A DNA stretch of 64,000 nucleotides from Chloroflexia bacterium (GCA_036388595.1 DASVRN010000100.1:11524-75523); one strand, 5' to 3'. Shown: positions 9,248 through 57,995, counted from the stretch's first letter. The notes: a model not told the origin generated them from the letters alone. Numbers and translations: made by a program.

Positions 9248-9412
9248 GAGGACTGAGGACTGAGGACTGAGGACTGAGTGTTTACTTGCGAGCTCCTCAG
9301 CCTCATCGCTAGAATTGCCTTGCATCTGATGGGAGTGTGGTGCATAATAGCGAAACGGCGTGTGAGGCTGTGAATGGCCGAGCTACTCAGTCCTCAGTCC
9401 TCAGTCCTCATC
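9248..9412. repeat. heptamer-arm hairpin element: (GAGGACT)n ... (CAGTCCT)n
   Basis: gaggactgaggactgaggactgag at 9248-9277 and its complement tcagtcctcagtcctcagtcctca at 9385-9412, about 105 bp apart. It sits in the divergent LLM/MTase intergenic region. Confidence 0.8.
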
Positions 9413-9434
9413 ACTGGTCAGAAAGGCCGGCTCG

Positions 9435-10505
9435 ATGCGCTACCTGGGTAACAAAGACAGCTTGCTGCCCTTCATCGACGAAGTGCTTGCTATGCACGGA
9501 GTGAAAAGCACGCGGGACAAACCGCTCTGCGTGTGCGACCCTTTCACCGGCACCACCGCCGTCGCCCGCCACCTCAAACGGCTCGAGTGGCAGACCGTCA
9601 CGGGCGACCTGATGACCTACTCCTACGCGCTGCAACACGCGTATATCGCCCTGAACGAAGCCCCGGTATTCGCCAACCTGGTGAACGCGGGCGTGCTAGA
9701 CGGCAGCGTGAACCTCCCGGTGCCCCTCCATCGCGTCATCGCGCACCTGAACAACCTGCGCGGCGTGGAGGGGTTCTTTTATTGGAATTACTCGCCCGAC
9801 GGGCCGGAGGGCAGGCGCTATTTCACGTCCGGGAACGCCCTGCGCATCGACGCTATCAGGAACACCATCAACTGGTGGTGGGAGCGGGGTTGGCTGATCG
9901 AATCGGAGCGATTCCTGCTGACGGCGGCACTGATCGAGGCGGTATCGAGGGTGGCGAACATCGCGGGCACCTATGCGGCGTTCCTCAAGCGGTGGGACTC
10001 GCGGGCGCGCAAGCCGCTGATGCTGGCGGTGCCCCAGGTGGTGCATAGCGCCTACGAGCACAGCATCAACCTGGCCGACGCCAACGAGTTGGTGCCCGAA
10101 ACGGAGTGCGACCTGCTGTACGTGGACCCCCCGTACAACACGCGGCAATACTGCACGAACTACCACCTGCTTGAGACGCTGGCGGTGGGCGATGAGCCTG
10201 AGACGCGGGGTGTCGCGGGGCTACGCACCGACGCCGAGGACAAGAGGTCGGCCTACTCCAAGACCGGGGCCGCAGAAGAAGCGTTATCGAAGCTGGTGAC
10301 AGGCTCCAAGGCGAAATGGGTGCTGGTCAGCTACAACAGCGAGGGCGTGATCCCGCACGACAAGATTGTGGACATCCTGTCTCAGCGCGGCACCGTGGAG
10401 ATTTACGCCTGCGAGTACCGCCGCTTCCGCTCCGACGCCGACGGTGAAAACCGCCAGTACAAGCCTAACACTACGGTGCAGGAGATGCTGTACTGGGTGG
10501 GGTGA
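9435..10505 (+). CDS. D12-class (Dam/FokI-like) N6-adenine DNA methyltransferase
   Basis: N-terminal MRYLGNKDSLLPFI (compare M.FokI MRFIGSKVNLL), motif I CDPFTGTTAV, and later LLYVDPPYNTRQY (motif IV). This is alpha-class order X-I-TRD-IV. Confidence 0.85.
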   Translation: MRYLGNKDSLLPFIDEVLAMHGVKSTRDKPLCVCDPFTGTTAVARHLKRLEWQTVTGDLMTYSYALQHAYIALNEAPVFANLVNAGVLDGSVNLPVPLHRVIAHLNNLRGVEGFFYWNYSPDGPEGRRYFTSGNALRIDAIRNTINWWWERGWLIESERFLLTAALIEAVSRVANIAGTYAAFLKRWDSRARKPLMLAVPQVVHSAYEHSINLADANELVPETECDLLYVDPPYNTRQYCTNYHLLETLAVGDEPETRGVAGLRTDAEDKRSAYSKTGAAEEALSKLVTGSKAKWVLVSYNSEGVIPHDKIVDILSQRGTVEIYACEYRRFRSDADGENRQYKPNTTVQEMLYWVG

Positions 10506-10512
10506 GGCGGAG

Positions 10513-10770
10513 TTCTTAATTCTTAATTCTTAATGTTCAATTCTTAATTGAGGTTTGGAGTAAATAGCAGATTTTGTGTGCGGGCACGATGCGTCGTGCC
10601 CATATGTGTCTGTATGGGTGGGAAACAGTAGCCATATGTGTGCATTCTACTTCGTACTGGGAGGCGGTCGTGCCGCAACGTAAGCTTGATACCTTGCATG
10701 GTGGCAACCGTGCCCCGCAACGAGAAACACAGCCAATTAAGAATTCAAAATTAAGAATTAAGAATTCTCC
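10513..10770. repeat. heptamer-arm hairpin element: (TTAATTC)n ... (GAATTAA)n
   Basis: ttcttaattcttaattcttaatgttcaattcttaattg at 10513-10550 and aattaagaattcaaaattaagaattaagaattc at 10736-10770. It lies between the two MTase genes. The right arm is wrongly included in track ORF 10574..11608. Confidence 0.75.
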
Positions 10771-10825
10771 CCCGCCGTCCGCCCATCCTCGTAACAGGTT
10801 GAACAACCTGACGGGGAGTGAGTGG

Positions 10826-11608
10826 GTGCATTTCCTGTCGTCCGTGGAGGCTACCGCGTTCCCAACTACCGGGCCGCAGTCGTACGGGCACAATTTGCGG
10901 CGAGTCCACCCATCACCCAAGCCGCCCCAGTTGATGCGGCGGCTGGTGGAGTTCTTTACGAAGGAGGGGGAATGGGTGCTTGACCCTTTTATGGGGGTTG
11001 GGGGCACACTGCTGGGGTGCTCGCTGGCGAACCGGGACGCGGTGGGGTTGGACCTATCTCCTGAGTACGTAGAGGTCTACAAGCAGGTGGCACGACAAGA
11101 GGGGTTGGGGACACAAACGGCGCTGATTACGGACGCGCGACGGATGTTGGAGCACCCGGAGGTAGCGGATCGCCTGTTCGACATGGTGCTGACCGACCCT
11201 CCCTATGGGGATATGATGCGGCGTCCGCAGAGCGGGGAGAAGAAGAAAAAGACGGGCCTGTCCTCGCCCACGCCGTTCACGGGCGACCCCGCCGACCTGG
11301 GCAACCTCACCTATGAGACATTCCTGGACGAGTTGGTAGGCATCATGGGCAAGTCGCTGGCGGTGCTCAAACCCTCGGGCTATCTAGTGCTGTTTGCCAA
11401 GGACTTCCAGCCCACCGAGCACCACCACAACCTGCTCCATGCCGACATCGTGGTGCGCCTCTCCAGGCTGCCGGAATTGGCCTACCGTGGCTGCAAAATC
11501 TGGTACGACCAGACCCCGCGCCTGTACCCATTCGGCTATCCCTACCGCTTCGTAGCCAACCAACTGCACCAGTACATCCTCATCTTCCAAAAAGCCAGCA
11601 ACCCTTAG
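10826..11608 (+). CDS. DNA methyltransferase (N6_N4_Mtase/PF01555-like, permuted motif order)
   Basis: VHPSPKPPQLMRRLVEFFTKEGEWVLDPFMGVGGTLLGCSLANRDAVGLDLSPEYVEV matches the HPTxKP + DPFxGSGTT catalytic-domain block, but it is followed (not preceded) by MVLTDPPYGDMM. A GTG start at 10826 with GGAGTGAG upstream is proposed; the repeat-encoded N-terminus of the track ORF is rejected. Confidence 0.65.
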   Translation: MHFLSSVEATAFPTTGPQSYGHNLRRVHPSPKPPQLMRRLVEFFTKEGEWVLDPFMGVGGTLLGCSLANRDAVGLDLSPEYVEVYKQVARQEGLGTQTALITDARRMLEHPEVADRLFDMVLTDPPYGDMMRRPQSGEKKKKTGLSSPTPFTGDPADLGNLTYETFLDELVGIMGKSLAVLKPSGYLVLFAKDFQPTEHHHNLLHADIVVRLSRLPELAYRGCKIWYDQTPRLYPFGYPYRFVANQLHQYILIFQKASNP

Positions 11609-11747
11609 GGGGCAATGAGTAAGAGACGAAACCGCAAAGGCGCAAAGAGCGCAAAGGACGCGCAAAGAGCATGAGGGTACGGGGCATACAAGAGCATGAT
11701 GCCCGTACCCTCGTCGGTGGCCCCGGTATTGGGCCCATAGAACCAAG

Positions 11748-11896
11748 CCCCTTCTGTCATCCTGAGCGCAGCGAAGGATCTCAAGAAGGTGAGTAGGGAT
11801 GCTGTTGAACGGCACGTACCAGGGTGCTGAACCTTCACCACAAGGGGTAAGGCAGCATCCTAGATCCTTCGCTACGCTCAGGATGACAGGGTGGGG
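11748..11896. repeat. MITE-like palindromic element, copy 4 (tcctgagcg variant)
   Basis: ccttctgtcatcctgagcgcagcgaaggatctc ... gatccttcgctacgctcaggatgacagggtgggg. The core shares gtagggatgctgttgaac with the solo arm at 6496. Confidence 0.75.
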
Positions 11897-12074
11897 CTTG
11901 GCCCTGCAAGAGCGGCATGGGGGCTACCCACGAGGGCAGGATACAGAGAGCGCCTACACACTCCAAACCATTATCTACTTAGTGTTACCTCTGAGCGTCC
12001 TTTGCGCTCTTTGCCCCTTTGCGGTTTCGTCTCTTGGGCAAGCCCACCGTCCGGTTTGTTGCAGGGGATACATT

Positions 12075-12814: not shown

Positions 12815-13160
12815 GGCTGAAACGTGAAACGTGAAACGTGATGCGGCCTGTGTTATTTGGTGCGTGGATTCGAGGGTGCTTCTATAGCAGCAGAACCCCA
12901 CTCCCTTCTGTCATCCTGAGCGTAGCGAAGGATCAGGTGAGTAGGCGAGAGTCCTCAACGTTGTGGATGATGCAGGTACGAGCAGCAGGGCACCTCAACA
13001 TCAAGGGTCAAGAACGGGCTACTGATCCTTCGCTACGCTCAGGATGACAAAGGGGAGCAAGGGTTCCTTACATGAAACAGGGTCGCCTCGTGAGTTGAGG
13101 CGACCCTGTTTCTTTTTGCGTACTAAGCTTCCCCTACCGCATCACGTTTCACGTTTCAGC
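12812..13160. repeat. composite element: (GAAACGT)n / (CACGTTT)n hairpin arms enclosing MITE-like copy 5 (12897-13057)
   Basis: gaaacgtgaaacgtgaaacgtgatgcgg at 12812-12840 and catcacgtttcacgtttcag at 13135-13160. Inside lies cccttctgtcatcctgagcgtagcgaaggatcagg ... ctgatccttcgctacgctcaggatgacaaagggga. Confidence 0.75.
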
Positions 13161-14166
13161 CACCGATGTGCGACATCTCCACCTTCGACCGCCTCACCGT
13201 CTCTAGGGTGCGCAGGTCGGAGTAGCGGTCGGTGCGGCGACGCCAGACTTTGGCGACGAAGGCTGATAGCTCCTCGTCAGTTTTGCCGGAGCGGAGGAGG
13301 GCGCGCAGGTCGTGGCCGTAGTTGCCGAAGAGGCAGGTGAAGAGTTGGCCCTCCGGCGAAAGGCGGGCGCGGGTGCAGGTGCCGCAGAAGGGTTGGGTGA
13401 TGGAGGAGATGATACCGATTTCGCCGCCGCCATCGAGGTAGCGGTAGCGGGAGGCCACTTCGCCCGTGTAGTTCGGCTCGGCGGGTTCGATGGGCATCTC
13501 GGCGTTGATGACGCGCACGATCTCAGAGGCGGGCACCACGTCGTCCATGCGCCAGCCATTGGTGGTGCCCACGTCCATGTACTCGATGAAGCGCAGAATG
13601 TAGCCGGTGCCGTGGAAGTAGCGGGCCATGGGCAGGATGCTGCTTTCGTTCACGCCACGCTGGACCACCATGTTGATCTTGATCGGCCACAGCCCGGCTT
13701 CCCGGGCGGCCTCAAGCCCTTCCAGCACGCGCCCCACCGGGAAGTCCACATCGTTCATCGACCGGAACACCGCATCGTCTAGCGAGTCGAGGCTGACCGT
13801 GAGGCGCTTCAGCCCGGCCTCCTTCAACGCAACGGCCTTCTTCGTGAGGAGCGCGCCGTTGGTGGTAAGAGTGAGGTCCTTGAGGCCATCCAGCGAGGCG
13901 AGCATGGCGATCAGCTTCTCCAGGTCGCGCCGCACCAACGGCTCCCCGCCCGTGATGCGCAGCTTCTCGACGCCGAGGCCGATGAAGACATGGGCCAGGC
14001 GGGTAATCTCCTCGAAGGTCAGCAGGTCGGCGCTGGGCAGGAACTGGAAGTCGCGCCCGAACACCTCCTTGGGCATGCAGTAGGTGCAGCGGAAATTGCA
14101 CCTATCGGTCACCGAGATGCGCAGGTCGTGGAGGGGCCTATTCAGTTGGTCAGTGGGCTTTTGCAT
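13156..14166 (-). CDS. moaA: GTP 3',8-cyclase MoaA (radical SAM)
   Basis: [18 protein letters not shown]...GGEPLVRRD. Start placed at the internal Met (ATG 14166, MQKPTDQL). The track N-terminus translates the GGATTTT repeat. Confidence 0.9.
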
Positions 14167-14167
14167 T

Positions 14168-14247
14168 TTGGATTTTGGATTTTGGATTTTAGATTGGTTT
14201 GGAGTGCTTCTTAATCCAAAATCCAAAACCTAAAATCCAAAATCGAA
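14168..14247. repeat. heptamer-arm hairpin: (GGATTTT)n ... (AAAATCC)n inside the moa operon
   Basis: ggattttggattttggattttagattgg at 14170-14197 and ccaaaatccaaaacctaaaatccaaaatc at 14214-14245. Confidence 0.8.
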
Positions 14248-14248
14248 T

Positions 14249-15039: not shown

Positions 15040-15293
15040 GTGATTGCATACAGGGCTGTGACAAAGTCGATGGGTTGCAACCTATAGGACCAGGCACCAC
15101 CCTTGTCATTTCGAACGCAGTGAGAAATCTCGTCCTCCAGCACCCAAAGCCAACCTTTATCCAACTATCCAGCATTATAACAAGATAGTCTCACAAGAAA
15201 CGGCCACAGCCCGGTGAAGGACGAGACTTCTCACTGCGTTCGAAATGACAGGGCGGTGCCTGGTCTCATAATTCGACTTTGTCACAGCCCTGG
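15040..15293. repeat. MITE-like palindromic element, copy 6 (tttcgaacg variant, extended ~60-bp terminal inverted repeats)
   Basis: Inner arms cccttgtcatttcgaacgcagtgagaaatctcgtcc / ggacgagacttctcactgcgttcgaaatgacaggg. Outer arms cagggctgtgacaaagtcga...gaccaggcacc and ggtgcctggtc...tcgactttgtcacagccctg. Confidence 0.75.
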
Positions 15294-17021: not shown

Positions 17022-17160
17022 ATTGATAATTACGAATTACGAATTACAGATTGCAGGCAGTATCCCATTGATGAGAGTGGAGCGCAAGAACAAAGGGAGC
17101 AGGTGTTGACCTACTCCCTTAGCATCCCCGTAATTCGTAATTCGTAATTCGTAATTCGTA
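17022..17160. repeat. heptamer-arm hairpin: (GAATTAC)n ... (GTAATTC)n
   Basis: gataattacgaattacgaattacag at 17024-17050 and cgtaattcgtaattcgtaattcgtaattac at 17128-17165. It lies between two co-oriented minus-strand genes. Confidence 0.8.
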
Positions 17161-17168
17161 ATTACCCT

Positions 17169-19457: not shown

Positions 19458-19579
19458 TAAATTTCCTCCTATTACCTTTCTATGGTATGAATGGTTAGTT
19501 GTTTATCATTATGTCTACTATCAAGGCTGCCATACTCAGGAGTGCCAGGTGAGCGTAGGATTCCTACACCCCCGACCTC

Positions 19580-19733
19580 CCCCGTGTCATCCTGAGCGCA
19601 GCGAAGGATCTCAGATGCTGCCTTTATCCCTGTGCTGAACCCTCCGCGTCATGTTCGCTACCATTCAGCCGTATCCCTGTTCACCTTCTTGAGATCCTTC
19701 GCTACGCTCAGGATGACAGGGGCACTCTTGGTC
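19580..19733. repeat. MITE-like palindromic element, copy 7 (tcctgagcg variant)
   Basis: cccccgtgtcatcctgagcgcagcgaaggatctcagatgctgcctttatccctgtgctgaaccctccgcg...gagatccttcgctacgctcaggatgacaggggc. The core is nearly identical to copy 8. Confidence 0.75.
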
Positions 19734-19751
19734 GCTTCGCACCAACACCTG

Positions 19752-19795: not shown

Positions 19796-19810
19796 AGCAC
19801 TCATTACTCG

Positions 19811-45819: not shown

Positions 45820-48339
45820 CTATGACGTATTTTGACTGCTTAGCCTTATGGCGTCTTCAAGCCACTTTCCTGCAGTAGTTGTCTTTGGATGTTCAGGCCC
45901 TAGGTACTTGTGAAATGTTCTGTACGCACTTGTCAGGCATCCCTGTGCCTCTTGAAAATTGCCTCCTTCTAGTAGGGCTACACCCAAGTTGGCCAGCCAT
46001 GTAGCTGCTTCTGGGTGGTCTGGACCATATACTGCTTCGCCAATAGCAAATGCTCTCTCGAAGTTAGAACGTGCCCCTTGCAGGTCTCCAAGTTCTCGTA
46101 GTACGGTGCCTAACATGCTTAATCTCACTGCCACATTTGGATGATTAGGACCGTACACGGACTTATCAATGGCAAGTGCCCTCTCTAAGTTGGAGCGTGC
46201 CCCTTGCAGGTCTCCAAGTGCTCGTAGTATAGCGCCCAAGTTATTTAAGCCTACAGCTACATGAGGGTGATCAGGGCCATGCACAGACTTGATTATAGCA
46301 AGTGCTCTCTCGAAGTTGGAGCGTGCCCCTTGCAGGTCTCCAAGTTCTCGTAGTACGGTACCTAAGTTATTCAACCTTGCAGCCACAGTAGGATGGTCTG
46401 GACCATACATAGACTTACCTATAGCAAGGGCTCTCTCGTGGTTGGAGCGTGCCCCTTGTAAGTCTCCAAGTACTCGTAGTACCGTGCCTAAGTTATTCAA
46501 CCGTATAGCCACTGTAGGATGGTCTGGACCATACACTGCTTCGCCAATCACTATTGCTCTTTCAAGCTGGTCTCTTGCCTCCTTGTACTGTGCTCTATGC
46601 TCCAGATATAAGCCCACCTCGTTCAAAACATGCGATAGTAATTCACCAATTCCCTTAGTAGTAGGTATTTGTAAGTCAAAAAAGGAGATCACTGCTAACG
46701 CGTGCGGCAACACACTAGCTGCAATAGGCCATGTACCCATGCCGTCTATTCTATAGCTGAAGCCATCTCCCACTACACGTAAGGCTGCCTCTATCCACGT
46801 CTGCCTCGCATCAGGTGACAGTTTATCGCGTACTACAGCTTGTACCAGACGGTGGATTGATATACTGCGTCTATCTTTGTCTACCTCAACCAGCGAATAC
46901 TTGCCTAACTCTCCAACTACGTCATCCAACTTAAGAGGTTCCGATACTGCTTTCTTGAGGCTCTCCGGCAAGTGGTCAGCCCCTGCTACGATCATGTCTA
47001 ACGGAATGTCCTCAGGAGCGAAGAAAGCGCACAGATTCAGCAGGTCGGCTGCCGCCGGTGAGTGCCCGCGCACGGCTTGGAATGTTAGCTCCCAGGTAGC
47101 AGCTATGGTGGCTGGATAATCGTCCGAAGGGATGAATGCCTTATCTCTGTACTCCTGGAACAAGGGCAGATAGTCGGCTAGCGATTTCTGTTTCTGCTCC
47201 ATGTATGCACCTGCCTGTGCCAGGGCTATGGGCAGAAAACCCAACCCCTCCGCGAGTTTGCCTGCTGTGGCTCGGTCCTTCTCCCCCGTGCGTTTCAGCA
47301 GGAAATCAACGGCTTCCTCCGGCTCCAGCACTTCTACAACTACGGGTTGAGCGTATTGCCGCCAGTTCGGGTTGCGGGACGTAATGAGCACATGCCCGGT
47401 GCCGACTTGAGGCAGATACTTCGCTATTTGCTTGCCATCCTCCGCATTGTCAAACACAAGCAGCCACCTGGTGTTCTCCCTCAGCCAGCGTAAGACTGCC
47501 TTAACATCAGCATCCTGGTCCCTGGTGTCTAGCTGAGATATTCCCAGTTCGCCCGCTAAAGCTGCAAAATCGGCTGCGAGCGTGGTAGGTTCCTCAGCAC
47601 GCACCCACAACACAGCATCATATTCGCCTGCATAACGGTAGGCATATTCATTGGCAAGCTGTGTCTTGCCAACACCACCCAACCCGTGTAGGGCTTGAGG
47701 CTGCGTCAAGGCGGCGTGCTGGCCGGAGGTAAGTTTCTCAAGTAGGTCTTGAAGCAATTCCTCACGCCCGGTGAAATTGAGGTTGCGGGAGTGTGGCACC
47801 GTCCAAACCCTCGGGAGGGCGGGCCTCGGGGGTAGGGGCGGCGTAGTGCTGGAACGCGTCGCAGAACCACTTTGCCTGCTTCGCCTTAGTGCCTCCGCTA
47901 CTTTCGCTATTCCTTGTGCGACATTGGTAAAGGCTTCATCTATATCCGGCCAACTCCTGACAGGCTTCCCATCGGTTGGTAAGAAGTTTAGCTTTCCGAA
48001 TATCGCACCCTTCCAGTACACGGAACGTATGATGATGGGAATAACACTCGCTTTGCGGGCCTCGTGCCGTTCCATAGCTCGCTTCAACTCCACGCTGGAG
48101 CAGTAACGGGAGGCAAGGAAGTCAGAACTGATAAGAAGGAGTATTATATCTGCGCTATTAAGGTGCTCATCTATCTCGTGCTCCCACTCTGTGCCCGCGC
48201 TGATGTTGCGGTCGTGCCAATTACTGATCACACCGTTGGTTCTCAATATGCTAAGATGCTTTTCAAGTTTGTCGCGAAGGTCCTCATCCTCATGTGCATA
48301 TGAGTAGAACACCTCCAATGGCTTTTCTGCGTCAGACAT
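45820..48339 (-). CDS. TIR - NB-ARC (STAND P-loop NTPase) - TPR-repeat protein
   Basis: Start MSDAEKPLEVFYSYAHEDEDL (ATG 48339). TIR-like domain (...SADIILLLISSDFLASRYCSSVELKRAMERH...). Walker A GLGGVGKTQLANEYAYRY. NB-ARC-like region (LLVFDNAED...ITSRN). About 7 near-identical 42-aa TPR units (ERALAIGKSMYGPDHPTVAARLNNLGTVLRELGDLQGARSNF). Codon usage is visibly AT-richer than that of neighbouring genes. Confidence 0.85.
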   Translation of the reverse strand: MSDAEKPLEVFYSYAHEDEDLRDKLEKHLSILRTNGVISNWHDRNISAGTEWEHEIDEHLNSADIILLLISSDFLASRYCSSVELKRAMERHEARKASVIPIIIRSVYWKGAIFGKLNFLPTDGKPVRSWPDIDEAFTNVAQGIAKVAEALRRSRQSGSATRSSTTPPLPPRPALPRVWTVPHSRNLNFTGREELLQDLLEKLTSGQHAALTQPQALHGLGGVGKTQLANEYAYRYAGEYDAVLWVRAEEPTTLAADFAALAGELGISQLDTRDQDADVKAVLRWLRENTRWLLVFDNAEDGKQIAKYLPQVGTGHVLITSRNPNWRQYAQPVVVEVLEPEEAVDFLLKRTGEKDRATAGKLAEGLGFLPIALAQAGAYMEQKQKSLADYLPLFQEYRDKAFIPSDDYPATIAATWELTFQAVRGHSPAAADLLNLCAFFAPEDIPLDMIVAGADHLPESLKKAVSEPLKLDDVVGELGKYSLVEVDKDRRSISIHRLVQAVVRDKLSPDARQTWIEAALRVVGDGFSYRIDGMGTWPIAASVLPHALAVISFFDLQIPTTKGIGELLSHVLNEVGLYLEHRAQYKEARDQLERAIVIGEAVYGPDHPTVAIRLNNLGTVLRVLGDLQGARSNHERALAIGKSMYGPDHPTVAARLNNLGTVLRELGDLQGARSNFERALAIIKSVHGPDHPHVAVGLNNLGAILRALGDLQGARSNLERALAIDKSVYGPNHPNVAVRLSMLGTVLRELGDLQGARSNFERAFAIGEAVYGPDHPEAATWLANLGVALLEGGNFQEAQGCLTSAYRTFHKYLGPEHPKTTTAGKWLEDAIRLSSQNTS

Positions 48340-48540
48340 ACGTTGCTCCCCAAGGCGAGGTATGAGAACACAGTGGCTTGTGTATAGCCACATTATAGCT
48401 GTACTAATGTTTGTAGGGAAGTGATAGCGCGTGCTTACAGATCGGGCAATAGTTGTAGAGGAATGGACAGGGTCTAATCGCGAGCAAAGCCAACAAGCAT
48501 CCACCTTCTAGGATGCTCGTTGGCTTTGTTCAGACGATAC

Positions 48541-49995
48541 TTACTTGTATCTTATTACCGCGAAGTCGGTGTCGAACATGTCTTCCTGGCGCAGGGTGGC
48601 GGAGCCGACTACTATCACCTTGCCGTCGGGCTGCACCGTCATTGCCAGGCCGATATCGTGAAAGTCGTCGAACTGGGTTGCTACCAGGCCCTCGTCGCCG
48701 AAGCTTTCGACCTTTGTGCCGTCCGGGTTCAGCAGCATGAGCGCGATAGCGTCGTTGTCGTCAATCGAGCCTGCGGTGAGCAGCTTGCCATCCGGCAGCC
48801 TCACAACGTCGTAGTTGAGGTCGGTGCCCTGCCTGTAGCCTACCTTGCCGTCGCCCCCAAAGCTTTCGTCGGGCGTGCCGTCGGGGTTGTACTGCGCCAG
48901 CCCGAAGCCGGGAGAGGCACAGGCGTCGGTCTCGCAGAAGGTCACATCGATGTACACGGGACCCGCGGCAACAATTTTACCGCCGGGCAGCACTAAGAGA
49001 GCTTCGATATAGTCACGGTCCTGGCGGAAGTCGGTCATCACCACGCCGTCCCTGCCGAACTCATCGTCCAGGCTGCCATCTTCGTTGTAGCGCACCAGCG
49101 TGTAGTCGTGCCCTTCCATCCCGGTGCTAGGATCGTCCGAACCATAGCCACCTACTAACACCTTGCCGTCGGGCTGCACCGCCACCGCGTGCGCCATCGC
49201 ATCGTTGGGGAACGAGGTGACCACACGCCCGCCGTCACCGAAACTCTCGTCAAGCGTACCATCTACGTTGAGCCGCACGGTCGCAAAGCTGTGTGGGTAG
49301 CGCCCCGTCATGCCCGCGAGCACAATCTTGCCATCGGGTGCCAGGGTGACCGCGTGCGCCTCCTCCTCCGAGGAGCTGCCCTCGGTCTGGTCAACAGCCA
49401 CGAGCGCCTTGCCGTCCTCACCGAAGCTCTCGTCCGGGCTGCCGTCCGGATTGTAGCGAAGGGCCGCAAATACCAGGTGGCCGGCATCAAAATCCAGCGT
49501 GGTGCCTACCGCTATGTACTTGCCGTCGGGCTGCTGGATAAGGGCGTGTGGCTCGCTATAGTCGTACTCAGAGTCGGTGACGTTGACCACCAACTTGCCG
49601 TCTTCTCCGAAGGTGGTGTCCAGGTTGCCCCTAGAATCGTAGCGGGTAAATGCAAACTGCGCCTTGGTCTTAGGCCACGTCTCACCCAGCACCACGATCT
49701 TGCCGTCTGCCTGCACAATTGCACCAACGGCCTCTTCGGGGCTGCCTCCTATGTTAGTGGTTACCTTCCCGCCTTTGCCGAATGACGTATCAAGTGTGCC
49801 GGCAAACGGGGACGCATCAACATGGGGAGTCCTGGTGGCACGGGCTGCCGTTCTAGTTTCAGAGGACTGTGGGGCGGGTTGAGGTGTGCCCTGGGTGGGG
49901 CTGACTTCACCGCAGGCTGTGTTCAGGATGAGGGGCAGCACCGCGAAGGCGGCAACGATAAGCTGAGTTGGTCTCGTGGGGTACTTGTTTGGCAT
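48541..49995 (-). CDS. secreted delta-60-repeat beta-propeller lipoprotein
   Basis: Signal ...LPLILNTACGE, then about 9 repeats of the form FGxDGKVVTxF...(P/Q)DGKIVVxG. Confidence 0.7.
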   Translation of the reverse strand: MPNKYPTRPTQLIVAAFAVLPLILNTACGEVSPTQGTPQPAPQSSETRTAARATRTPHVDASPFAGTLDTSFGKGGKVTTNIGGSPEEAVGAIVQADGKIVVLGETWPKTKAQFAFTRYDSRGNLDTTFGEDGKLVVNVTDSEYDYSEPHALIQQPDGKYIAVGTTLDFDAGHLVFAALRYNPDGSPDESFGEDGKALVAVDQTEGSSSEEEAHAVTLAPDGKIVLAGMTGRYPHSFATVRLNVDGTLDESFGDGGRVVTSFPNDAMAHAVAVQPDGKVLVGGYGSDDPSTGMEGHDYTLVRYNEDGSLDDEFGRDGVVMTDFRQDRDYIEALLVLPGGKIVAAGPVYIDVTFCETDACASPGFGLAQYNPDGTPDESFGGDGKVGYRQGTDLNYDVVRLPDGKLLTAGSIDDNDAIALMLLNPDGTKVESFGDEGLVATQFDDFHDIGLAMTVQPDGKVIVVGSATLRQEDMFDTDFAVIRYK

Positions 49996-50505
49996 TCTTG
50001 TATAGAGTCCTTTTCTATGTACGTCATTGTTGAGACTTTCTATATAGTCGCCGGTATGTGATCTTTATTGCAGGAGCATACAAGGATGCTCAGGCTAACG
50101 CATCAGCCTAAGAGTGGAATGCGGTACATACAATGATGTAGCGGAGAGTGTAGAACGATCGGAGCCAGAGGCTGCGACCCACGCTGCTACCGCTACTGGG
50201 ACCTATCTCCCATAGCTCATTACAACTGCATGTAGTATCCTAGACCCAGGAAACGTTCGTGCAGGGGCGGAACGTGAAGGCTATGTCCCGACCTTGCCTG
50301 TGCTATGCGATGTATGAAAAGCAGGACATTTGCGTGCGTCTCGCCACAACACGAAGACAGGTAGTGCCAGCAGTCCTACTCGTGGCGCATGCATGTACTC
50401 CCGGAGAAGCGGTGATCTGAGGTATTTGAGTCAGTCAATAGCTGGATTTGAAGGTGTAATGGCGGAGCAAAGGAAAGCCGCCTGGTTTCATCTCGACAGT
50501 AACCC

Positions 50506-51069
50506 TTGGGAGATCGCCCCTACGTGAATGGCTCGCGTCATTTGAAAGCACACCCACAACGGTCCGCATTCTGGAAGCTGCTGGTGCGTGTTCATGTGCT
50601 GCTGTGGCTGGGCATCATCGCAGGTGTAACGCTAGCCATTGCCTTTGGGGTGAGCGGTGTTGGAGAGACCGGTGTGCTCCTATGCTTGATCATATACCTG
50701 ACCACCGTAGCACTTGTGGGCTTGCTTGTCGGGCGAGCGTTGGGCCGCTCCAAACAGCGTCCGATCCTTCAAGGCTCTAGTGCAACGGAAGCACTAATCT
50801 TCGTCACCGATGCGGTAGCTGCGTCTGCGCTTATGATGGGTTTTGTCCTGCAAGCAGCGTCAGCAACCTACGGCCAGGTTTACGGCCGCTTAGGCTTTGC
50901 CTTCATGCTTACGGCCGGTGTAGCCTGGCTAGCGAGCTTCATTGCTGCTTTGAGGATCTACTTCCGCACCGGAAATAGGATGCTCGTTGCTCTCGTCTGC
51001 TGTTTCATCTGGATCAGCATAGTGTTTGTATATGAGATTCTGACCGGTCGCCAGTATTGGGGCTTCTGA
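50506..51069 (+). CDS. hypothetical 4-TM membrane protein
   Basis: 187-aa ORF with hydrophobic segments. No family recognised. Confidence 0.4.
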   Translation: MGDRPYVNGSRHLKAHPQRSAFWKLLVRVHVLLWLGIIAGVTLAIAFGVSGVGETGVLLCLIIYLTTVALVGLLVGRALGRSKQRPILQGSSATEALIFVTDAVAASALMMGFVLQAASATYGQVYGRLGFAFMLTAGVAWLASFIAALRIYFRTGNRMLVALVCCFIWISIVFVYEILTGRQYWGF

Positions 51070-51191
51070 AGTAACCATTTCGGTATCTAGAGTCATCCTC
51101 TTGCTCCGGTTGTTCGGCCTGCATACCAAGAGTAAGGCTGGTAAGAGATTTGAACTATTCTATGCTGCGGTAGATGCTAGAGGGGCCGGGG

Positions 51192-54191
51192 CTACTCTTC
51201 GTCGTCCAAGGGTGAGGCTTCCGGCTCCTCTTCTTCATCCTGCCTATCAGCTTCATTTTCATTTTGGCCTGTGTCTGCCCTGGGGGCGAAGCCTATCATA
51301 CCCGCCATCTCCACCACGCCCCGGCGCATCAACTTGTCGGCCTCGGATAGGGTGGCGCGGAGGGGGTTTTGGGGGTCCTGGTGGGCCAGCATGTCGCGCA
51401 CCTGGCGCATGAGGTCGAGGGTCTTGTTGAAGGTCATCACGAGGTCGCCCTCGCTCATCTGCATCTGGTCGAGCAGGTCGGCTATGGAGGTGCCTTTACA
51501 CCAGGCGCGGGCGGCCCCGTAGAAGTAGGGGTTGTAGCCGCGTGTGAGGGCGAGGTCCTGGCGGCGCTCGGCGGAGAAGATGGCGTTTTGCAGGCTGTCG
51601 AGATCGCGGCGCAGGTTGAGCAGGTAGCGCGGCAGCAGCAGGCGGTTGAGGAAGTCGATGTCGCGGTCGTAGGCGAACCAGGAGAAGACTTCCGCCAGGT
51701 CCTGCGGCTTCAGCCCGTCAAAGTAGCCCCCCTCCACCATCTCGGTGATCATCAGGGTGTTGGTGTCGAAGATGTCGGCCAGCTTGCGCGCCTTGTAGGT
51801 TGGCTCGCCCTTGCGCAGGTACGCGAACTGCACCAGCACAGTGGTAAGACCCTTAAGTGTGTTCTGAAGGCGGGTTTCCTCGTAATGCCGGCGCTCGGAC
51901 AGGCGCTTCTCGGCGGCGTCCCGGTCGAGCAGGAGGCGGGCGCGGAGGCGGCGGTTGCTGCGGTGCTCCTTGCGCACTGGGCAGTGGTGGCAAACGTGCT
52001 CCCTCTCGGCTTTAGTAGCCACAGCAAGCTCGGCCCGCGCTTCCTCCAGGTTGGCCTTCGCCTTAGTAGAAACCTCCTCTATATGCTCCAACTGCGCCGC
52101 CCGGTACTCCTCTATCCAGGCCTGGATGTCGGGGACAGCCTGTAGACCCAGGCCCGCGCTCTCCCGCAGTTGCCCTAGCTCCTCGGCGGGTAGTAGTTCC
52201 TCCAGGGGCATGGTGGGGGGCACCGCAAGCGTGGTGAGGGCAAAGGGCAGGTCTACCGTGACGGTGACGGTATGCAGGTAGTCTATCTGCCGGTACTCGG
52301 TGAGCGCGAAAATTTCCCCAAGCCGCACGCCCTCTTCTCCCCGGCTCACAGGCAGGAACAGCCCAATCACTGCCCCGCCCAACCCTCTCCCCAGGTATGC
52401 CGCCCAGCCTTGCCCCTCGATGTGCACCAACGCACCTTGTGGCAAGCTGCGGAAGGCTTTGCGGAGTTGGTCGCGCTCAGGTCGTCGCCAGGGCAATTCG
52501 GTGCGGCGCGACTCGATATAGCTCACGTTCTGCTCGGCCTTGCGCTCTCGGCGGCGCAGGTCGTCCACCTCGCGGCCCCGGTGCTCGTATTCGTCCAGCA
52601 GTTCCTCGCCGTTGTCGTAGCCGATAAGGCAACCGGCGGGCACCTCGGCCAGGCGGGCTTCCTCGTCCTCAAGCTCCTGCTCCAGGTCGCGCAGGCGGCG
52701 GCTCTGCTGGAAGTTGAGGAGGGAGGCCCGCATGACGGTGAGCACCCGCTCTCCCCTCGGCGCGTCCCACAGGTTGAGCACCGAGTTGTAGCGCATGGTG
52801 AAGGCGCTCTCCACCGGGCGTAGAGGTCCCGTGGCGATGTTCAACGCCTCGTGGAAGGTCACCCAGGGGGAATAAGGCAGCACCACGTGCCCCTGCTCGT
52901 CAATACCCCGGCGGCCCGCCCGGCCGGACATCTGCTGGAACTCGTTGGGGATGAGGGGGCGGCGAGATACACCGTCGTACTTGCTCATGCCGCCGATGAC
53001 TACAGTGCGAGCGGGCATGTTTACGCCGAGGGCCAACGTATCGGTGGCGAACACCACACGCATAAGCGACTTGTTGAAAAGCTCCTCCACAAGCTGCTTA
53101 AGGATGGGCAGCAGGCCCGCGTGGTGGAAGCCGAAGCCCCGCCGCGCCAGGTACGTGATGAACTCCACCTGTTGCAGCCTGCGGTCTTCGGGGGTGAGAC
53201 GCTCCAGGTAGCTGGCGAGCACCTCGTTGATACGCTGCACGATCCGGCGGTCGCGCATCGCCTTGAGGCGGGTCATGGAGCAAATTTCGGCGGCGGCCTC
53301 GCAGTCGCGGCGGGAGAACTGGAAGTAGATGGCGGGGAGCAGGTCAGCCCGCTCTAGCTCCTCCACGATCTCGCGGGGGCCGGGTTCGCGACGCTCTCGC
53401 TGGGTGTTGGTGTCTTCCTCCAGAGTGGGGCCACGGTAGCGCCCGCCCTGCATCTTGCGCTTTAGCTCGCCGCCCACGTTGAAATCGACCACCTGCTGGC
53501 CCTGGGCGTTGATGACCATGTTGAGCGTGCCGTCGAGGAAGTAGTAGAGGGAGAGAGGCACGGCGCGTTGCAGGTGGGTGACCAGGTGCACCGGCTGGTG
53601 GGTGCGGGTAATCCAATCCGCGATTTCGGGGGCGTTGGTCACCGTGGCGGAGAGGCAGACCAGTTGCACGTGCTTGGGGCACATGATGATCGACTCTTCC
53701 CAGGTGGTGCCGCGCTCCGGGTCGGCCAGGTAGTGGACCTCATCGAAGATGATGCAGCCAACACCCCAAAGCTCCGAGGGCGTCTGGAGGAGCATGTTGC
53801 GCAGCACCTCGGTGGTCATGACGATGATGGAGCCTTCGCGGTTCTCTATCACGTCGCCGGTGAGGAGGCCCACGGCGTCGCCGTACTGTTCGCGGAGGTC
53901 GCGGAACTTCTGGTTGGAAAGGGCTTTGATGGGGGTGGTGTACATCACCTTGAAGCCCTGGCGCGCCGCGCGGAAGATGCCGAACTCGGCCACAACGGTC
54001 TTGCCGGTGCCGGTGGGGGCCGCCACCATGACACTCTCGCCCGCCGCGAGGTGCGCGATAGCCTCCTCCTGGAACGGGTCGAGGGGGAAGGGATAGCGCC
54101 CGCGAAACTCCTCTACGAGGTGTTGGGCTTCGGGGGTGAGGTTGCCGGGTTGCGGTTCGGCTTGGGTGGTCTGCTTGGGTTTGCGGGGCAT
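51192..54191 (-). CDS. helY: Ski2-like DEAD/DEAH-box helicase (HelY family)
   Basis: FPLDPFQEEAI...MVAAPTGTGKT (motif I), IFDEVHYLAD (DExH), SATV, ...HHAGLLP...QQMSGRAGRRG (motif VI), and a long C-terminal domain. Confidence 0.85.
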   Translation of the reverse strand: MPRKPKQTTQAEPQPGNLTPEAQHLVEEFRGRYPFPLDPFQEEAIAHLAAGESVMVAAPTGTGKTVVAEFGIFRAARQGFKVMYTTPIKALSNQKFRDLREQYGDAVGLLTGDVIENREGSIIVMTTEVLRNMLLQTPSELWGVGCIIFDEVHYLADPERGTTWEESIIMCPKHVQLVCLSATVTNAPEIADWITRTHQPVHLVTHLQRAVPLSLYYFLDGTLNMVINAQGQQVVDFNVGGELKRKMQGGRYRGPTLEEDTNTQRERREPGPREIVEELERADLLPAIYFQFSRRDCEAAAEICSMTRLKAMRDRRIVQRINEVLASYLERLTPEDRRLQQVEFITYLARRGFGFHHAGLLPILKQLVEELFNKSLMRVVFATDTLALGVNMPARTVVIGGMSKYDGVSRRPLIPNEFQQMSGRAGRRGIDEQGHVVLPYSPWVTFHEALNIATGPLRPVESAFTMRYNSVLNLWDAPRGERVLTVMRASLLNFQQSRRLRDLEQELEDEEARLAEVPAGCLIGYDNGEELLDEYEHRGREVDDLRRRERKAEQNVSYIESRRTELPWRRPERDQLRKAFRSLPQGALVHIEGQGWAAYLGRGLGGAVIGLFLPVSRGEEGVRLGEIFALTEYRQIDYLHTVTVTVDLPFALTTLAVPPTMPLEELLPAEELGQLRESAGLGLQAVPDIQAWIEEYRAAQLEHIEEVSTKAKANLEEARAELAVATKAEREHVCHHCPVRKEHRSNRRLRARLLLDRDAAEKRLSERRHYEETRLQNTLKGLTTVLVQFAYLRKGEPTYKARKLADIFDTNTLMITEMVEGGYFDGLKPQDLAEVFSWFAYDRDIDFLNRLLLPRYLLNLRRDLDSLQNAIFSAERRQDLALTRGYNPYFYGAARAWCKGTSIADLLDQMQMSEGDLVMTFNKTLDLMRQVRDMLAHQDPQNPLRATLSEADKLMRRGVVEMAGMIGFAPRADTGQNENEADRQDEEEEPEASPLDDEE

Positions 54192-56111: not shown

Positions 56112-56639
56112 TTATGGCTTAGGGGCGTTGGGGTTCTTATTTTTGTTGCCCGGATGGTTGGGGTTGTTCTTGGGGCCGCCCGCCCAGGGTGGCTTACCGG
56201 GGCCACGTATCGTCTCGCCGTTGATGGTGTACACTTCCAGGCTGGGCACGGTCGATTGTGGCGGCTGGGCGGCTGGGTTGCCCTTGTTCTTGTTCTTGGC
56301 CTTCCCGAACGCCTTGCCCTTCTCGGCTTCGACCACGCCCGTCACCGTCACCTGCCGGCCCGCGTACTTATCGAGGGGGTACGCGCCATTGGCGTAATAC
56401 CAGGGCGGGCCGGCGGAGAGGCGATAAAGTGTCGCGCCGCTGCCGTTCTTGAGCAGGTAGCTCTTCTCGCCGCCTGCCGTTTCGACCACCAGCGTGCCGG
56501 TGGTGGTGATTACGTTTTCGGGGGCCTTGGGCGGCTTGGGTTTGTTGGGCTTGGCCTGGGCGCTCGAACCACTTACGAGCAGCGCCAGTACCACCAGGGT
56601 AGCACCAAACGCGGCCCAGAATCTGAATGTGCGTGACAT
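56112..56639 (-). CDS. small secreted Lys/Pro/Asn-rich protein
   Basis: Signal peptide ...LVSGSSAQA, then Lys/Pro-rich N- and C-terminal tails around a ~90-aa core. Confidence 0.5.
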   Translation of the reverse strand: MSRTFRFWAAFGATLVVLALLVSGSSAQAKPNKPKPPKAPENVITTTGTLVVETAGGEKSYLLKNGSGATLYRLSAGPPWYYANGAYPLDKYAGRQVTVTGVVEAEKGKAFGKAKNKNKGNPAAQPPQSTVPSLEVYTINGETIRGPGKPPWAGGPKNNPNHPGNKNKNPNAPKP

Positions 56640-56801
56640 GAACTCGGTTCTCCTTACAGTCTGCTACGCCCGCGTGACGAAAAGTATTGCTATTGTGATT
56701 GTATATGCAGCAGGCAGGCCGGGGAATAGCTCATTCGGGCTATGAAGCGCTGCCGGTTACGCGCCCACAGCAGCTTCATAGATAGAAGCAGGCCCCTACA
56801 G

Positions 56802-57140
56802 CTAAGGCATGTCACTCGTTCTAGACTGTTTCTGCCCCCTATGGAGCCTATAGATGAGGTAAGCCGAGAAGAATAGAACCACGATGAACGCGACGAATAC
56901 GGCAAGCACCGTTAATAGAGTAGTTATGGGGATGTAAGCAGTGCCAAAAGGTTTTAGCTCGACAAAGTTGTCGCTGCTGATCGAGCCAGAGCCACCAATA
57001 TGGATGTGCCACCCTTCCACAATGGTAGATGGTCTAAACGAAGAGTAGATGGAAATCTCGAACGCAGTAAGGAGCAAGATGAAGAGGAGGAACGTAACAC
57101 CGATACCTAAACGCTTTGCAAGTGTAGGGGATTTGCTCAT
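56802..57140 (-). CDS. small 2-TM membrane protein in AT-rich islet
   Basis: 112-aa ORF. The surrounding 56640-57340 is about 48% GC versus ~63% in the flanks. Confidence 0.4.
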   Translation of the reverse strand: MSKSPTLAKRLGIGVTFLLFILLLTAFEISIYSSFRPSTIVEGWHIHIGGSGSISSDNFVELKPFGTAYIPITTLLTVLAVFVAFIVVLFFSAYLIYRLHRGQKQSRTSDMP

Positions 57141-57341
57141 GTCAGGAACACCGCTGAATCAGGCGTAGTAAGCACTCGTCGTTTAGCCTATTTTACTACC
57201 ACTTACCTGTAGTGCCAAATAAAGAAAGATTACTCAAGATGGCAGATTCAGAAGTAAAGCAGTAGGCAAGGCTTCTCAGGATGCCCTTAATACCGGCTTG
57301 CACAGGCATATTACAGGACAAGCTGTAACACGCACTAGAGA

Positions 57342-57962
57342 TTATGCAGGCGGGTAGGGACAGTGTGCCCATATCAGCTTCATCGGCAGGAGCAGCCCGC
57401 GCCTGTTCTCCACCCGCTCGACCCGCAACCCTGCCTCACGAATAAGCTTCTCGGTATCCTGGTTCAATCTACATCCGCCCGCGAGCCTCGACCACACAGG
57501 GGCAAGCGCGTCCTGCATCTTCGCCTGCACGCGGTTCCCGGCCCTGACGTGTTCGAGGAAGCGGGCGGTAGCGCCGGGCTTTAGCACCCGCCTGACTTCG
57601 GCCAGCGCCGTGTGAGGGTCGGGGATGGTGCAGAGTGCCAGGTTACACACCAGTGCGTCGAAGGTGGCGTCGGGGAAGGGCAGGCGCATGGCATCGGCGG
57701 CCGCTACGACTACCCCGGCACGCGCCGATTTCGCCCTGCTGCTCAGGCGAGGCAGGCTGGCGGGGTCGAACTCGGTGGCGACCACCCGCGCGGCAGGCGA
57801 GTAATATCGCAGGCTCAGCCCGGTACCCGCCCCAATCTCCAGCACCAGGCCATCGAGCGGAGCTATTAGTTTACGCCTGCGCGGCCCAATGAAGAACATC
57901 TCCGGCGGCCCCTGTAGCGCCAGGTCGTAGAAGAATGGGTTGGTGGCTGGTGAAGTAGGCAT
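57342..57962 (-). CDS. class I SAM-dependent methyltransferase (Methyltransf_11-like)
   Basis: VLEIGAGTGLSLRYY and ...FDALVCNLAL.... Confidence 0.8.
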   Translation of the reverse strand: MPTSPATNPFFYDLALQGPPEMFFIGPRRRKLIAPLDGLVLEIGAGTGLSLRYYSPAARVVATEFDPASLPRLSSRAKSARAGVVVAAADAMRLPFPDATFDALVCNLALCTIPDPHTALAEVRRVLKPGATARFLEHVRAGNRVQAKMQDALAPVWSRLAGGCRLNQDTEKLIREAGLRVERVENRRGLLLPMKLIWAHCPYPPA

Positions 57963-57995
57963 CGGGAGACGACGGACGACGGACGATGGACGTTA
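57963..57995. repeat. (GACGACG/GGACGAT)n tandem array
   Basis: gacgacggacgacggacgatggacg lies directly upstream of the methyltransferase start. Confidence 0.6.

Follow-up and report, generated by a model that had tools for sequence, protein, structure and literature searches.

What are the seven-nucleotide repeats that stand head to tail at gene boundaries in an uncultured soil Chloroflexia bacterium and reappear in reverse complement a short way further on? We addressed this question in a 64,000-nucleotide stretch of its DNA (GCA_036388595.1, DASVRN010000100.1:11524-75523; referred to as the window), for which a reading of the sequence alone, the original prediction, had reported a multi-copy family of hairpins with arms of tandem heptamers. 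These repeat-paired hairpins of Chloroflexia intergenic spacers are real but little-studied simple-sequence DNA. We give a probability of roughly 55% to the reading that they are arrays of the class formed by heptanucleotide short tandemly repeated repetitive (STRR) DNA and the Xanthomonas (GGGANTN)n repeats, set mostly in convergent pairs, inherited vertically and acting as RNA stem-loops through which transcription reads.

We mapped the genes of the window from long open reading frames (ORFs), codon-position GC content and Pfam domains (coding fraction 84%), and called tandem arrays by running Tandem Repeats Finder alongside a separate scan for periodicity, comparing periods of 4 to 12. The window holds 24 period-7 arrays of 2.4-12 copies, against 0-1 for every other period in that range and a mean of 0.07 period-7 arrays in 30 dinucleotide-preserving shuffles of the window. 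The multi-copy class proposed in the original prediction is genuine. All of the arrays it listed are present within a few bases of where it had placed them, and the single, unpaired arms it claimed are arrays as well; it had overlooked one pair (HH11) and one array in coding sequence. Non-coding DNA, though it makes up 16% of the window, contains 23 of the 24 arrays. Eleven inverted pairs (HH1-HH11) and five single arrays make up the set (Table 1), at least nine unrelated kinds of unit coexist in it, and arrays are nearly absent from the window's variable stretch at 45-57 kb. A CRISPR-like reading was rejected because the units are contiguous, without spacers; a stop in all three frames was rejected as a universal property of the units because GGATTTT, GGGATTT, GGACGAT and GAATTAC contain no stop trinucleotide on the G-rich strand. 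Across the whole window, Rfam 15 at gathering threshold gave 0 matches and a tRNA scan found nothing.

Paired arms form stems of 22-35 bp with few or no mismatches and duplex energies of −28 to −67 kcal/mol. When seven short hairpins were each compared with 200 shuffles, z-scores ranged from −4.4 to −11.4 and 0 of 200 shuffles folded as well, so that by folding energy, a check put forward with the original prediction, the stems are far stabler than shuffled sequence. The pairs occupy the whole spacer, from the upstream stop codon to shortly before the next start. On the stop side the array begins −3 to +11 nt from the stop codon, and the first unit often includes the stop codon itself, be it TGA, TAG or TAA (both sides of HH3, HH8, HH10, HH11 and the gltX array); on the start side it ends 3-58 nt before the start codon, or 3-33 nt in tandem junctions. 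Within the first 46 kb, pairs were found at 8 of 21 tandem, 1 of 6 convergent and 2 of 5 divergent junctions. The spacer between the arms measures about 11-360 nt and its content is arbitrary: a featureless 11-20 nt, promoter-like sequence, a classic terminator, or an element resembling a miniature inverted-repeat transposable element (MITE-like).

Several short motifs lie beside the hairpins. An extended −10 box, TGCTATAAT, stands outside both HH7 arms (37495-37503 on the minus strand, and 38016-38024), and a second box, GGTTATAAT, follows HH8 (39395-39403; invariant in 5 genomes) and pgk (43361-43369). The boxes lie about 2-30 nt before annotated starts (about 8 nt for the minus-strand gene beginning at 37490), a proximity to start codons that suggests very short-leader or leaderless mRNAs. 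After HH8 comes the invariant sequence GGTTATAATG, and the motif AATCGGTTATAAT was found at two loci, unchanged in relatives.

The order of the arms follows a rule. In 9 of the 11 pairs the G-rich arm is 5′; of the other two, one is neutral and the AT-rich HH2 shows a weak reversal. This G-first polarity reads identically on both strands, and it is kept irrespective of the flanking boundaries, be they starts on both sides (HH1, HH7), stops on both sides (HH3) or a start and a stop. The patterns used to collect external loci were matched on both strands, which leaves the position of the partner unbiased, and the census of these loci was unit-agnostic. Here G-first outnumbered C-first pairs by 25:1 in the metagenome and by 22:0 and 10:0 in viral sets (57:1); a regular-expression test placed the C-arm exclusively downstream in 31 loci and exclusively upstream in 2. 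Thymine-first or purine-first order was rejected as the primary rule, G versus C alone being consistent. Because duplex thermodynamics are indifferent to arm order, the polarity must have its origin either in common descent or in some process with a direction, transcription or DNA synthesis for example.

One candidate filter is the termination factor Rho, which loads on C-rich, G-poor, unstructured RNA (rut sites). With G-first order, a transcript from either side would make the G/U-rich arm first and the C-rich arm would be captured on emergence, so that the nearly G-free C-rich arm (TAACCAC, AAATCCC, ATAACTC) would never be left single-stranded. The opposite polarity would expose 25-85 nt of C-rich, G-poor, unstructured RNA to Rho loading and would be polar inside operons. 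That Rho avoidance explains why only G-first pairs survive is speculative, and the one datum in its favor comes from Rho-less Nostoc, where few of the heptamer repeats are paired and the mRNA strand is more often the C-rich one (PMC4692102). We found 3 arrays and 0 pairs in the first 50 kb of Nostoc plasmid alpha, and a scan of viral contigs for STRR1, (CCCCAGT)3, gave 5 loci, none paired.

With hardly an exception, unrelated bacteria and phages keep a polarity that was first noted in Xanthomonas. At least 120 metagenome contigs of 35-70% GC contain the composite arm GGGAATTSGGATTKCGGATT; among IMG/VR contigs, 45 contain (GTGGTTA)3 and 24 contain (GGGGATT)3. One metagenomic contig (Ga0070740_10002702, 1-14065), whose SecY shares 96% identity with a protein from Pyrinomonadaceae (Acidobacteriota), contains 16 arrays in 14 kb, with seven G-first inverted pairs, one of them right after secY. 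A phage contig (IMGVR_UViG_3300037843_000663, 1-14211; 65% GC) contains 23 arrays in 14 kb, mostly as hairpin pairs, between successive TerL, portal, S49 protease and major capsid genes. Such breadth invites a wider reading, which we hold only tentatively and regard as rather unlikely: that the arrays are a cross-phylum class of self-maintaining DNA elements (Chloroflexota, Acidobacteriota, Pseudomonadota, tailed phages) whose polarity records an undescribed directional process. Templated repeat synthesis at 3′ ends, strand-biased template switching from arm to arm, or the Rho filter could be that process. Heptamer arrays would then be exchangeable cassettes, writable even into coding sequences.

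The external hairpins also differ in their units. Those of the Acidobacteriota-like contig are built of GGATTGC, GTTTTCG, GTGAGCG, CAGAGGT, CAGTTTT (twice) and GTGATGA, beside two arrays without a detected partner. In the phage contig they are (AGGAGTT)n/(AACTCCT)n, with a Shine-Dalgarno-like G-arm and an anti-Shine-Dalgarno-like C-arm, and GGATTTT. Many SGGAWTK hairpins elsewhere share the outermost ends CGATTT...AAATCG, and several in other organisms (metagenome loci L042, L104 and L141) end a few bases from tRNA genes.

How the hairpins of the window came to lie where they do was examined in related genomes. Close relatives were represented by loci from Chloroflexia metagenome-assembled genomes (L001-L005, L017 and L022; 90-96% protein and about 88% nucleotide identity), which contain period-7 arrays and, at other periods, three isolated short arrays only. 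With increasing distance, measured on phosphoglycerate kinase (PGK), L019, L023 and L024 (about 75%) hold 4-9 arrays per 21 kb, L020 (74%) holds 1 period-7 array, L025 (66%) holds 3 and L021 (66%; 72% GC) holds 0, as do the distant Dehalococcoidales and Clostridia loci. When six sites of the window were aligned with L001-L005, the hairpin proved to be at the same place in every genome, and no empty site was found among these six in relatives of about 88% identity. In L026 and L027 the HH6 orthologues are still hairpins, built of altered units. Between gap and pgk, the junction has no hairpin in L021 and L025 (15 nt and 34 nt) and a plain 12-bp hairpin in L024; heptamer hairpins there are built of AGGAGTC in L023, GAAGTTA in L019, GAGTTAT in L002 and L003, and GTGGTTA in the window, L001 and L022. 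The outer edge of the window's hairpin retains CTCATAACT, a remnant of the GAGTTAT type, and in L017 a 190-nt near-perfect palindrome (9795-10000; −174.5 kcal/mol) replaces the heptamer hairpin. At the gltX stop, L002 and L003 have GGACGAT arrays in the orthologous position, and L022 has nine copies; overlapping the window's own array is a window-specific 29-nt unit, GATGGACGATGGGTCCTGAGCCTGCGAAG, repeated 2.5 times in tandem at 100% identity (36109-36180), which incorporates GGACGAT heptamers and is absent at the orthologous site of L002 and L003. Since the same sites are occupied in relatives and changed in place, the sites are most likely inherited vertically and their sequence remodeled there.

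The manner of this remodeling is clearest at HH8, where base pairs were counted on an alignment of five distinct sequences in unit register. Its 33-bp stem has 32 of 33 Watson-Crick pairs in the window and 33 of 33 in L001/L022, though five pairs differ on both sides. Taking all five sequences together, two-sided changes affect 7 of 33 pairs while 96.4% of cells remain paired, and slid controls all collapse. Columns 8, 15, 22 and 29, each seven apart, switch from G-C to A-T (A-U in RNA) in the same genomes, while the differences from unit to unit are kept. Mirrored switches at a period of seven with unit differences preserved make independent point mutation followed by selection unlikely; replacement by a paralogous array, arm-to-arm correction, or motif-specific mutation of identical duplex motifs is more plausible. 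As arm correction and exchange also yield covariation, covariation is no proof of a functional RNA.

Arms are likewise shared among unlinked loci, as had been claimed from the sequence. The segment GAAACGTGAAACGTGATGCGG occurs exactly at 12826(+), 13137(-) and 40880(+), where 0 occurrences are expected. Three further matches are 97% identical: the HH6 G-arm (26754-26787) with HH8 (39306-39339), variant-unit order included; HH4 (14213-14243) with the coding array (27923-27953); and the HH1 C-arm (9379-9410) with the flank of a single array (19758-19789). Within one genome a unit may occupy two sites 4 kb apart, as TAACCAC does in the window and ATAACTC in L002. At the array site within the DinG-like gene, the window has AAATCCA, L026 has units of AAATCCG type and L027 has AAAACTC; the linker in which this site lies (27867-27986), between helicase motifs, is hypervariable, and the flanking protein sequence is nearly unchanged among the three relatives. 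We infer that array cassettes are exchanged between loci, apparently even within coding sequence.

These comparisons bear on the proposal, made in the original prediction, of a mobile or template-switch-generated element. Its second half has fared well, in that template switching or gene conversion would be the most economical source of mirrored arms and swapping. Its first half has not: transposon-like mobility finds no support in a hairpin kept at all six sites in 3-7 relatives and in the lack of target-site duplications. In its explicit form, mobility would mean non-autonomous foldback or MITE-like elements with terminal inverted repeats (TIRs) of heptamers and a transposase elsewhere, the polarity being inherited TIR sequence. 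A TIR family is expected to have uniform polarity, and identical arms, with their variant order and non-repeat flanks, do recur at unlinked loci; GGGAATTSGGATTKCGGATT is spread over its many metagenomic contigs often with the same CGATTT...AAATCG outer ends; arrays occur in viral contigs; and there is one clear case of presence and absence, a single AATTACG array after pgk in L017 that is absent in the window and L022. We nevertheless consider this explanation unlikely. Every compared orthologous site is occupied in close relatives, with change in place, and the flanks of all 11 pairs show no consistent direct repeat that would mark a target-site duplication, the apparent ones at HH8 and HH9 being self-complementary stem extensions. 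The interiors, of 11-358 nt, are unrelated to each other, arms are unequal and change length by whole units, single arms are common, and unit types differ wholly between elements. A Pfam scan of 40 window proteins found 0 transposase domains, Y1 type included. Drosophila foldback (FB) transposons have long, unequal inverted arms of short tandem repeats around an arbitrary center and are mobile with target-site duplications; unlike the hairpins here, they are eukaryotic, of kilobase scale and demonstrably mobile, and the window shows no such evidence of mobility.

The original prediction could assign the hairpins to no named family, yet the class of heptameric simple-sequence repeats (SSRs) fits, as represented by cyanobacterial STRR sequences, Xanthomonas (GGGANTN)n and Chloroflexus (GATAGRA)n. 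The window's arrays share its hallmarks: head-to-tail 7-nt tandem copies, a non-coding bias, several unit variants, and conserved sites with variable copy number. Convergent pairing of the Xanthomonas type extends to the 9 window pairs and the 57:1 majority outside. G-runs of the kind that form G-quadruplexes (G4) are found only in HH6 and HH8 units (GGG/CGG), and are absent from GAAACGT, GAATTAC, GTGGTTA, GAGTTAT and TTCTTAA; unlike repetitive extragenic palindromic (REP) sequences and bacterial interspersed mosaic elements (BIMEs), the elements share no conserved palindrome, and no Y1 transposase was found among the scanned window proteins. Tandem heptamers were reportedly described as cyanobacterial STRR sequences by Mazel et al. 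in 1990, Vioque (1997) is said to have placed STRRs within a helix of the gene for RNase P RNA, and a survey of prokaryotic genomes in 2007 reportedly found heptamer SSRs over-represented. We know of no established mechanism or function for heptamer SSRs in bacteria. The class itself is thus already in the literature, and the window is a member of a known, unexplained kind.

Xanthomonas offers the closest precedent. X. campestris has 186 (GGGANTN)n repeats with 70 convergent pairs, conserved in location and variable in length and sequence, and Rehm et al. (2015) found pairs to be always convergent, at 70-75 per genome in two genomes, and identified no function (PMC4692102). As in the window, the unit is a heterogeneous heptamer that lies close to the 5′-neighboring ORF, 89-93% of the Xanthomonas repeats are intergenic, about three quarters are in inverted pairs and these are G-first; the SGGAWTK units of HH6 and HH8 fit GGGANTN (PMC4692102). 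The window differs in its at least nine unrelated units, mostly not G4-capable, its Chloroflexota host and the tighter abutment of arrays on stop codons, and mirrored unit turnover and exchange between loci are documented in the window only. Nostoc heptamers include units as in the window (ATTGCGAATTG and TTGTTAGTTGTTAG), with ATTGCGA (= GAATTGC) and TTGTTAG (= GTTGTTA) identical, and are of many types and intergenic (PMC2408588), but few are paired (PMC4692102), more are intragenic and the host is AT-rich. In Chloroflexus aurantiacus, of the same class Chloroflexia, 22 satellites derive from (GATAGRA)n (Subirana & Messeguer 2019, PMC6749651); these are scattered heptamer-derived arrays whose unit resembles the GGACGAT/AGACGAT of the window and L019, although they comprise one unit family and the report does not cover pairing, polarity or gene context. 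The TAACTGA heptamers of Beggiatoaceae (MacGregor 2015) are also intergenic and cross-phylum, extending to Cyanobacteria and Bacteroidetes, with horizontal spread suspected, but are nearly all direct repeats upstream of starts, with one inverted pair among 170 sets (PMC4679880). A full-text literature search returned no paper on heptamer hairpins in Chloroflexi and none containing the array sequences. Four aspects look new here: the reach of the polarity rule, which spans phyla and phages; how closely arrays abut coding boundaries; the period-7 mirrored substitutions; and the exchange of cassettes, coding sequence included.

Under the reading we prefer, a vertically inherited heptamer class active as RNA, units would be gained and lost by replication slippage in 7-nt steps, and mirror-identical arms and inter-locus exchange would arise through template switching or gene conversion, not transposition. 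RNA polymerase would read through the hairpins inside operons, and the transcripts would contain intercistronic or 3′-proximal double-stranded stem-loops. RNase III has as its canonical substrate a perfect RNA duplex of at least 25 bp, and stable 3′ stem-loops protect upstream messages. The hairpins are plausible RNase III processing or mRNA-stabilizing elements by analogy of position with T7 RNase III sites and Escherichia coli REP/BIME sequences, which are likewise stable stem-loops between cistrons of read-through operons. Unlike them, REP is a conserved imperfect palindrome of about 35 nt mobilized by a REP-associated tyrosine transposase (RAYT), T7 sites are unique sequences with internal loops, and neither is built from tandem heptamers or G-first. 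Hairpins lie inside units that most bacteria have as operons, namely gap-pgk, moaA-moaE, the secY region of the Acidobacteriota-like contig (L044) and the morphogenesis module of the phage (L214); gap-pgk, moa, secY and phage-late-type operons are generally co-transcribed. In HH10, the loop is too short, and the C-arm too close to the ribosome-binding site, for a pgk promoter to fit in.

The same gene-end positions might instead suit bidirectional terminators or insulators that work without a U-tract. G-arms begin no more than 11 nt from stop codons, three arms are directly followed by strong −10 boxes (TGCTATAAT on both HH7 sides; GGTTATAAT at 39395), and canonical terminators are not enriched in the 36-45 kb region (1 found against 5.4 expected). 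This too strikes us as an unlikely account. Classic stem-plus-U terminators stand at operon ends (Table 1) and also within the HH3 and HH5 loops, so the genome appears to have ordinary ones where needed, and the terminator scan did not pick up the heptamer arms. Hairpins also occur within gap-pgk and moaA-moaE, behind secY and among phage late genes, where no promoter follows, and two lie between divergent genes. The T-rich arm is 5′ in 7 of 11 pairs, the reverse of a bidirectional terminator, in which the A-tract is upstream and the T-tract downstream. From the sequence, then, the hairpins are apparently not canonical terminators, in keeping with the original prediction that they are not simply terminators.

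A number of observations weigh against the stem-loop reading. Read-through, RNase III cleavage and an effect on mRNA stability are inferred from anatomy, and covariation cannot separate selection for RNA pairing from arm correction at the DNA level. On the sense strand, G-U pairs outnumber A-C mismatches by 12 to 6, a count driven by HH11 in stems too perfect to be informative. The HH7 arms have diverged without compensation, and copy numbers per arm are often unequal (2.9 versus 5.0; 4.1 versus 6.3). Two hairpins lie between divergent genes, where no normal transcript passes through both arms, so that a role in RNA cannot explain these two. The strand of single arrays relative to adjacent ORF stops shows no clear bias, although Rho avoidance might have predicted one (20 versus 15 among 83 metagenomic loci, a noisy count, spurious antisense ORFs being common in GC-rich DNA). 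The step of 7 nt itself is left unexplained. A neutral by-product would account for the divergent cases, unequal arms and HH7 drift no less well than function does.

Such a by-product could come from directional DNA synthesis, if G-rich repeats were added, for example by slippage or templated synthesis, to both 3′ ends of an intergenic double-strand break before rejoining; arrays would then last only where the genome tolerates insertions. This would suit a polarity that is independent of start or stop boundaries (HH1, HH3, HH7) and near-universal across phyla and phages, and also unequal arm copies, unrelated spacer material, single arrays as one-sided events and the scarcity of arrays at 45-57 kb. 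We know of no enzyme for heptamer addition at 3′ ends, independent synthesis of the arms would not mirror the heterogeneous unit order of HH6 and HH8 unless they shared a template, and the long-term upkeep of pairing at orthologous sites would go unexplained; we find this origin quite doubtful. That the arrays are protein-binding sites (for cold-shock/OB-fold proteins with one heptamer per monomer, or of CsrA type on GGA) or G4 structures, with the hairpin incidental, draws on the GGA/GAA core of many units (GGATTTN, GGAATTG, GGACGAT, GGACTGA, GGAGTCA), on the at least four G-runs needed, which SGGAWTK has, on G4 formation shown biophysically for GGGAATC (PMC4692102) and on binding proposed elsewhere (PMC4679880; bioRxiv 10.1101/2022.06.06.494920), but is most improbable given that GAAACGT, GAATTAC, GTGGTTA and TTCTTAA are neither G4-capable nor contain GGA, that the G-arm is predicted to be fully paired, and that units at one site change freely between relatives, which speaks against sequence-specific recognition.

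The window brings together stable sites, turnover of units, co-changing arms and swapping arrays, with graded relatives for comparison, and so offers a chance for testing these readings. There is a practical side as well, in that the arrays break short-read assemblies and mislead gene callers through spurious ORF extension and variable linkers in real proteins.

Table 1. Heptamer hairpins, single arrays and associated features of the window (positions counted from its first nucleotide; copy numbers after x; energies in kcal/mol).
Feature	Position	Arms or units	Context	Fold
HH1	9241-9410	G-arm (GAGGACT)x5, 9241-9278; 105-nt spacer; C-arm (AGTCCTC)x3.9, 9384-9410	Divergent luciferase-like (-) and Dam-type methyltransferase (+) genes	Arm duplex of 25 Watson-Crick pairs, −53.7
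HH2	10511-10766	(TTCTTAA)n, 10511-10549; (TTAAGAA)n, 10735-10766; spacer 185-207 nt by arm-end call	Two co-oriented DNA methyltransferase genes; AT-rich; sole pair not G-first	
HH3	12818-13158	G-arm (GAAACGT)x3 + GATGCGG, 12818-12846; mirror 13137-13158	Convergent PIN (+) and moaA (-); both TGA stops within first unit; loop holds MITE-like inverted repeat and canonical terminator	
HH4	14156-14244	(GGATTTT)x5, 14156-14195; (AAAATCC)x4.6, 14213-14244	Between moaA and moaE, both (-)	−32.9, z −6.2
HH5	17028-17163	(GAATTAC)x2.9, 17028-17047; (GTAATTC)x5, 17129-17163	Between DUF3160 and EamA genes (-); loop holds canonical terminator-like hairpin	−59.3, z −9.0
HH6	26754-26836	Heterogeneous (SGGAWTK)x5, 26754-26787; mirror 26803-26836	2-Hydroxyacid dehydrogenase and DinG-like helicase genes (+)	z −4.4
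HH7	37508-38010	(GTGGTTA)x2(GTTGTTA)x6, 37508-37566; (CAACCAC)x6(TAACCAC)x5.6, 37925-38010; 358-nt interior	Divergent genes; interior with promoter-like sequences	Arms partly complementary only
HH8	39305-39390	Arms 39305-39339 and 39350-39390; five heterogeneous units	Begins in TAG stop of CbiX-like gene; ends 25 nt before CofD-like start	33-bp stem; −57.9, z −11.4
HH9	40873-40971	(GAAACGT)x3.3 + GATGCGG, 40873-40900; mirror 40944-40971	Between CofD-like gene and gap; ribosome-binding site directly after C-arm	−56.5, z −8.8
HH10	42005-42091	(GTGGTTA)x4, 42005-42033; 14-nt loop; (TAACCAC)x6.3, 42048-42091	Between gap and pgk; C-arm abuts pgk ribosome-binding site	−53.5, z −11.0
HH11	44275-44341	(GAGTTAT/GAGTTGT)x4.7, 44275-44307; shorter ATAACTC partner, 44325-44341	Starts in TAA stop of AhpC-like gene	−36.5, z −7.7; 4 G-U pairs in stem (sense strand)
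Single array	19763-19803 (-, sense)	(GAGGACT)x5	7 nt past PGA_cap gene stop; no partner found	
Single array	21675-21730 (+)	(GGAGGAT)x2(GGACGAT)x6	Divergent intergenic region; adjoins MITE-like element	
Single array	36098-36120 (+)	(GGACGAT)x2-3	From gltX stop codon	
Single array	57968-57992 (+)	(GACGACG/GGACGAT)x3.6	5 nt upstream of start of (-) gene 57342-57962	
Coding array	27922-27953 (+)	(AAATCCA)x4.6	Inside DinG-like gene 26840-29846; encodes variable linker	
Terminator	2595-2566 (-)		After greA	
Terminator	13074-13112 (+)		After PIN gene; in HH3 loop	
Terminator	17120-17093 (-)		After DUF3160 gene; in HH5 loop	
Terminator	34505-34542 (+)		After SLH protein gene	
MITE-like copy	3345-3523			
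MITE-like copy	6507-6728			
MITE-like copy	8036-8205			
MITE-like copy	11736-11906			
MITE-like copy	12890-13067		In HH3 loop	
MITE-like copy	15094-15253			
MITE-like copy	19566-19736			
MITE-like copy	21788-21958			
MITE-like copy	23720-23865			

Some further features of the window are worth recording. The methyltransferase genes that flank HH2 (9435-10505 and about 10800-11608) are of the D12-class N6-adenine and N6_N4 types, and no restriction enzyme domain was recognized near them. A variable island (45820-51273) holds a TIR-NB-ARC-TPR gene (STAND-type, defense-like) followed by a DUF5122 beta-propeller gene. The 126-nt tandem repeats of the TIR gene (46016-46548) encode TPR units; the gene is 77% identical in L001 and absent in L003, and 48466-51273 is absent in L001. 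The island and most of the 45-64 kb region have lower GC content and hardly any heptamer arrays. Inside HH7, at 37745-37905, lies an inverted repeat, each arm about 45 nt long (GGAGACGCCCGTCGATTAAAATCGAGGGCTACACCTTGCGAAGTC...), that is conserved in L002 and L003; with the gap-pgk palindrome of L017, which is similar in architecture, such long nested palindromes may form a third repeat family. The MITE-like elements are a second, unrelated dispersed family of nine copies, about 150-220 nt long, whose TIRs, roughly 27 nt in length, read GTCATCCTGAGCG(Y)AGCGAAGGATC or, as a variant, GTCATTCTGAACGCAGTGAAGAATC. All nine are intergenic and lie in the first 24 kb, and two of them (19577-19718 and 21799-21940) are 92% identical.

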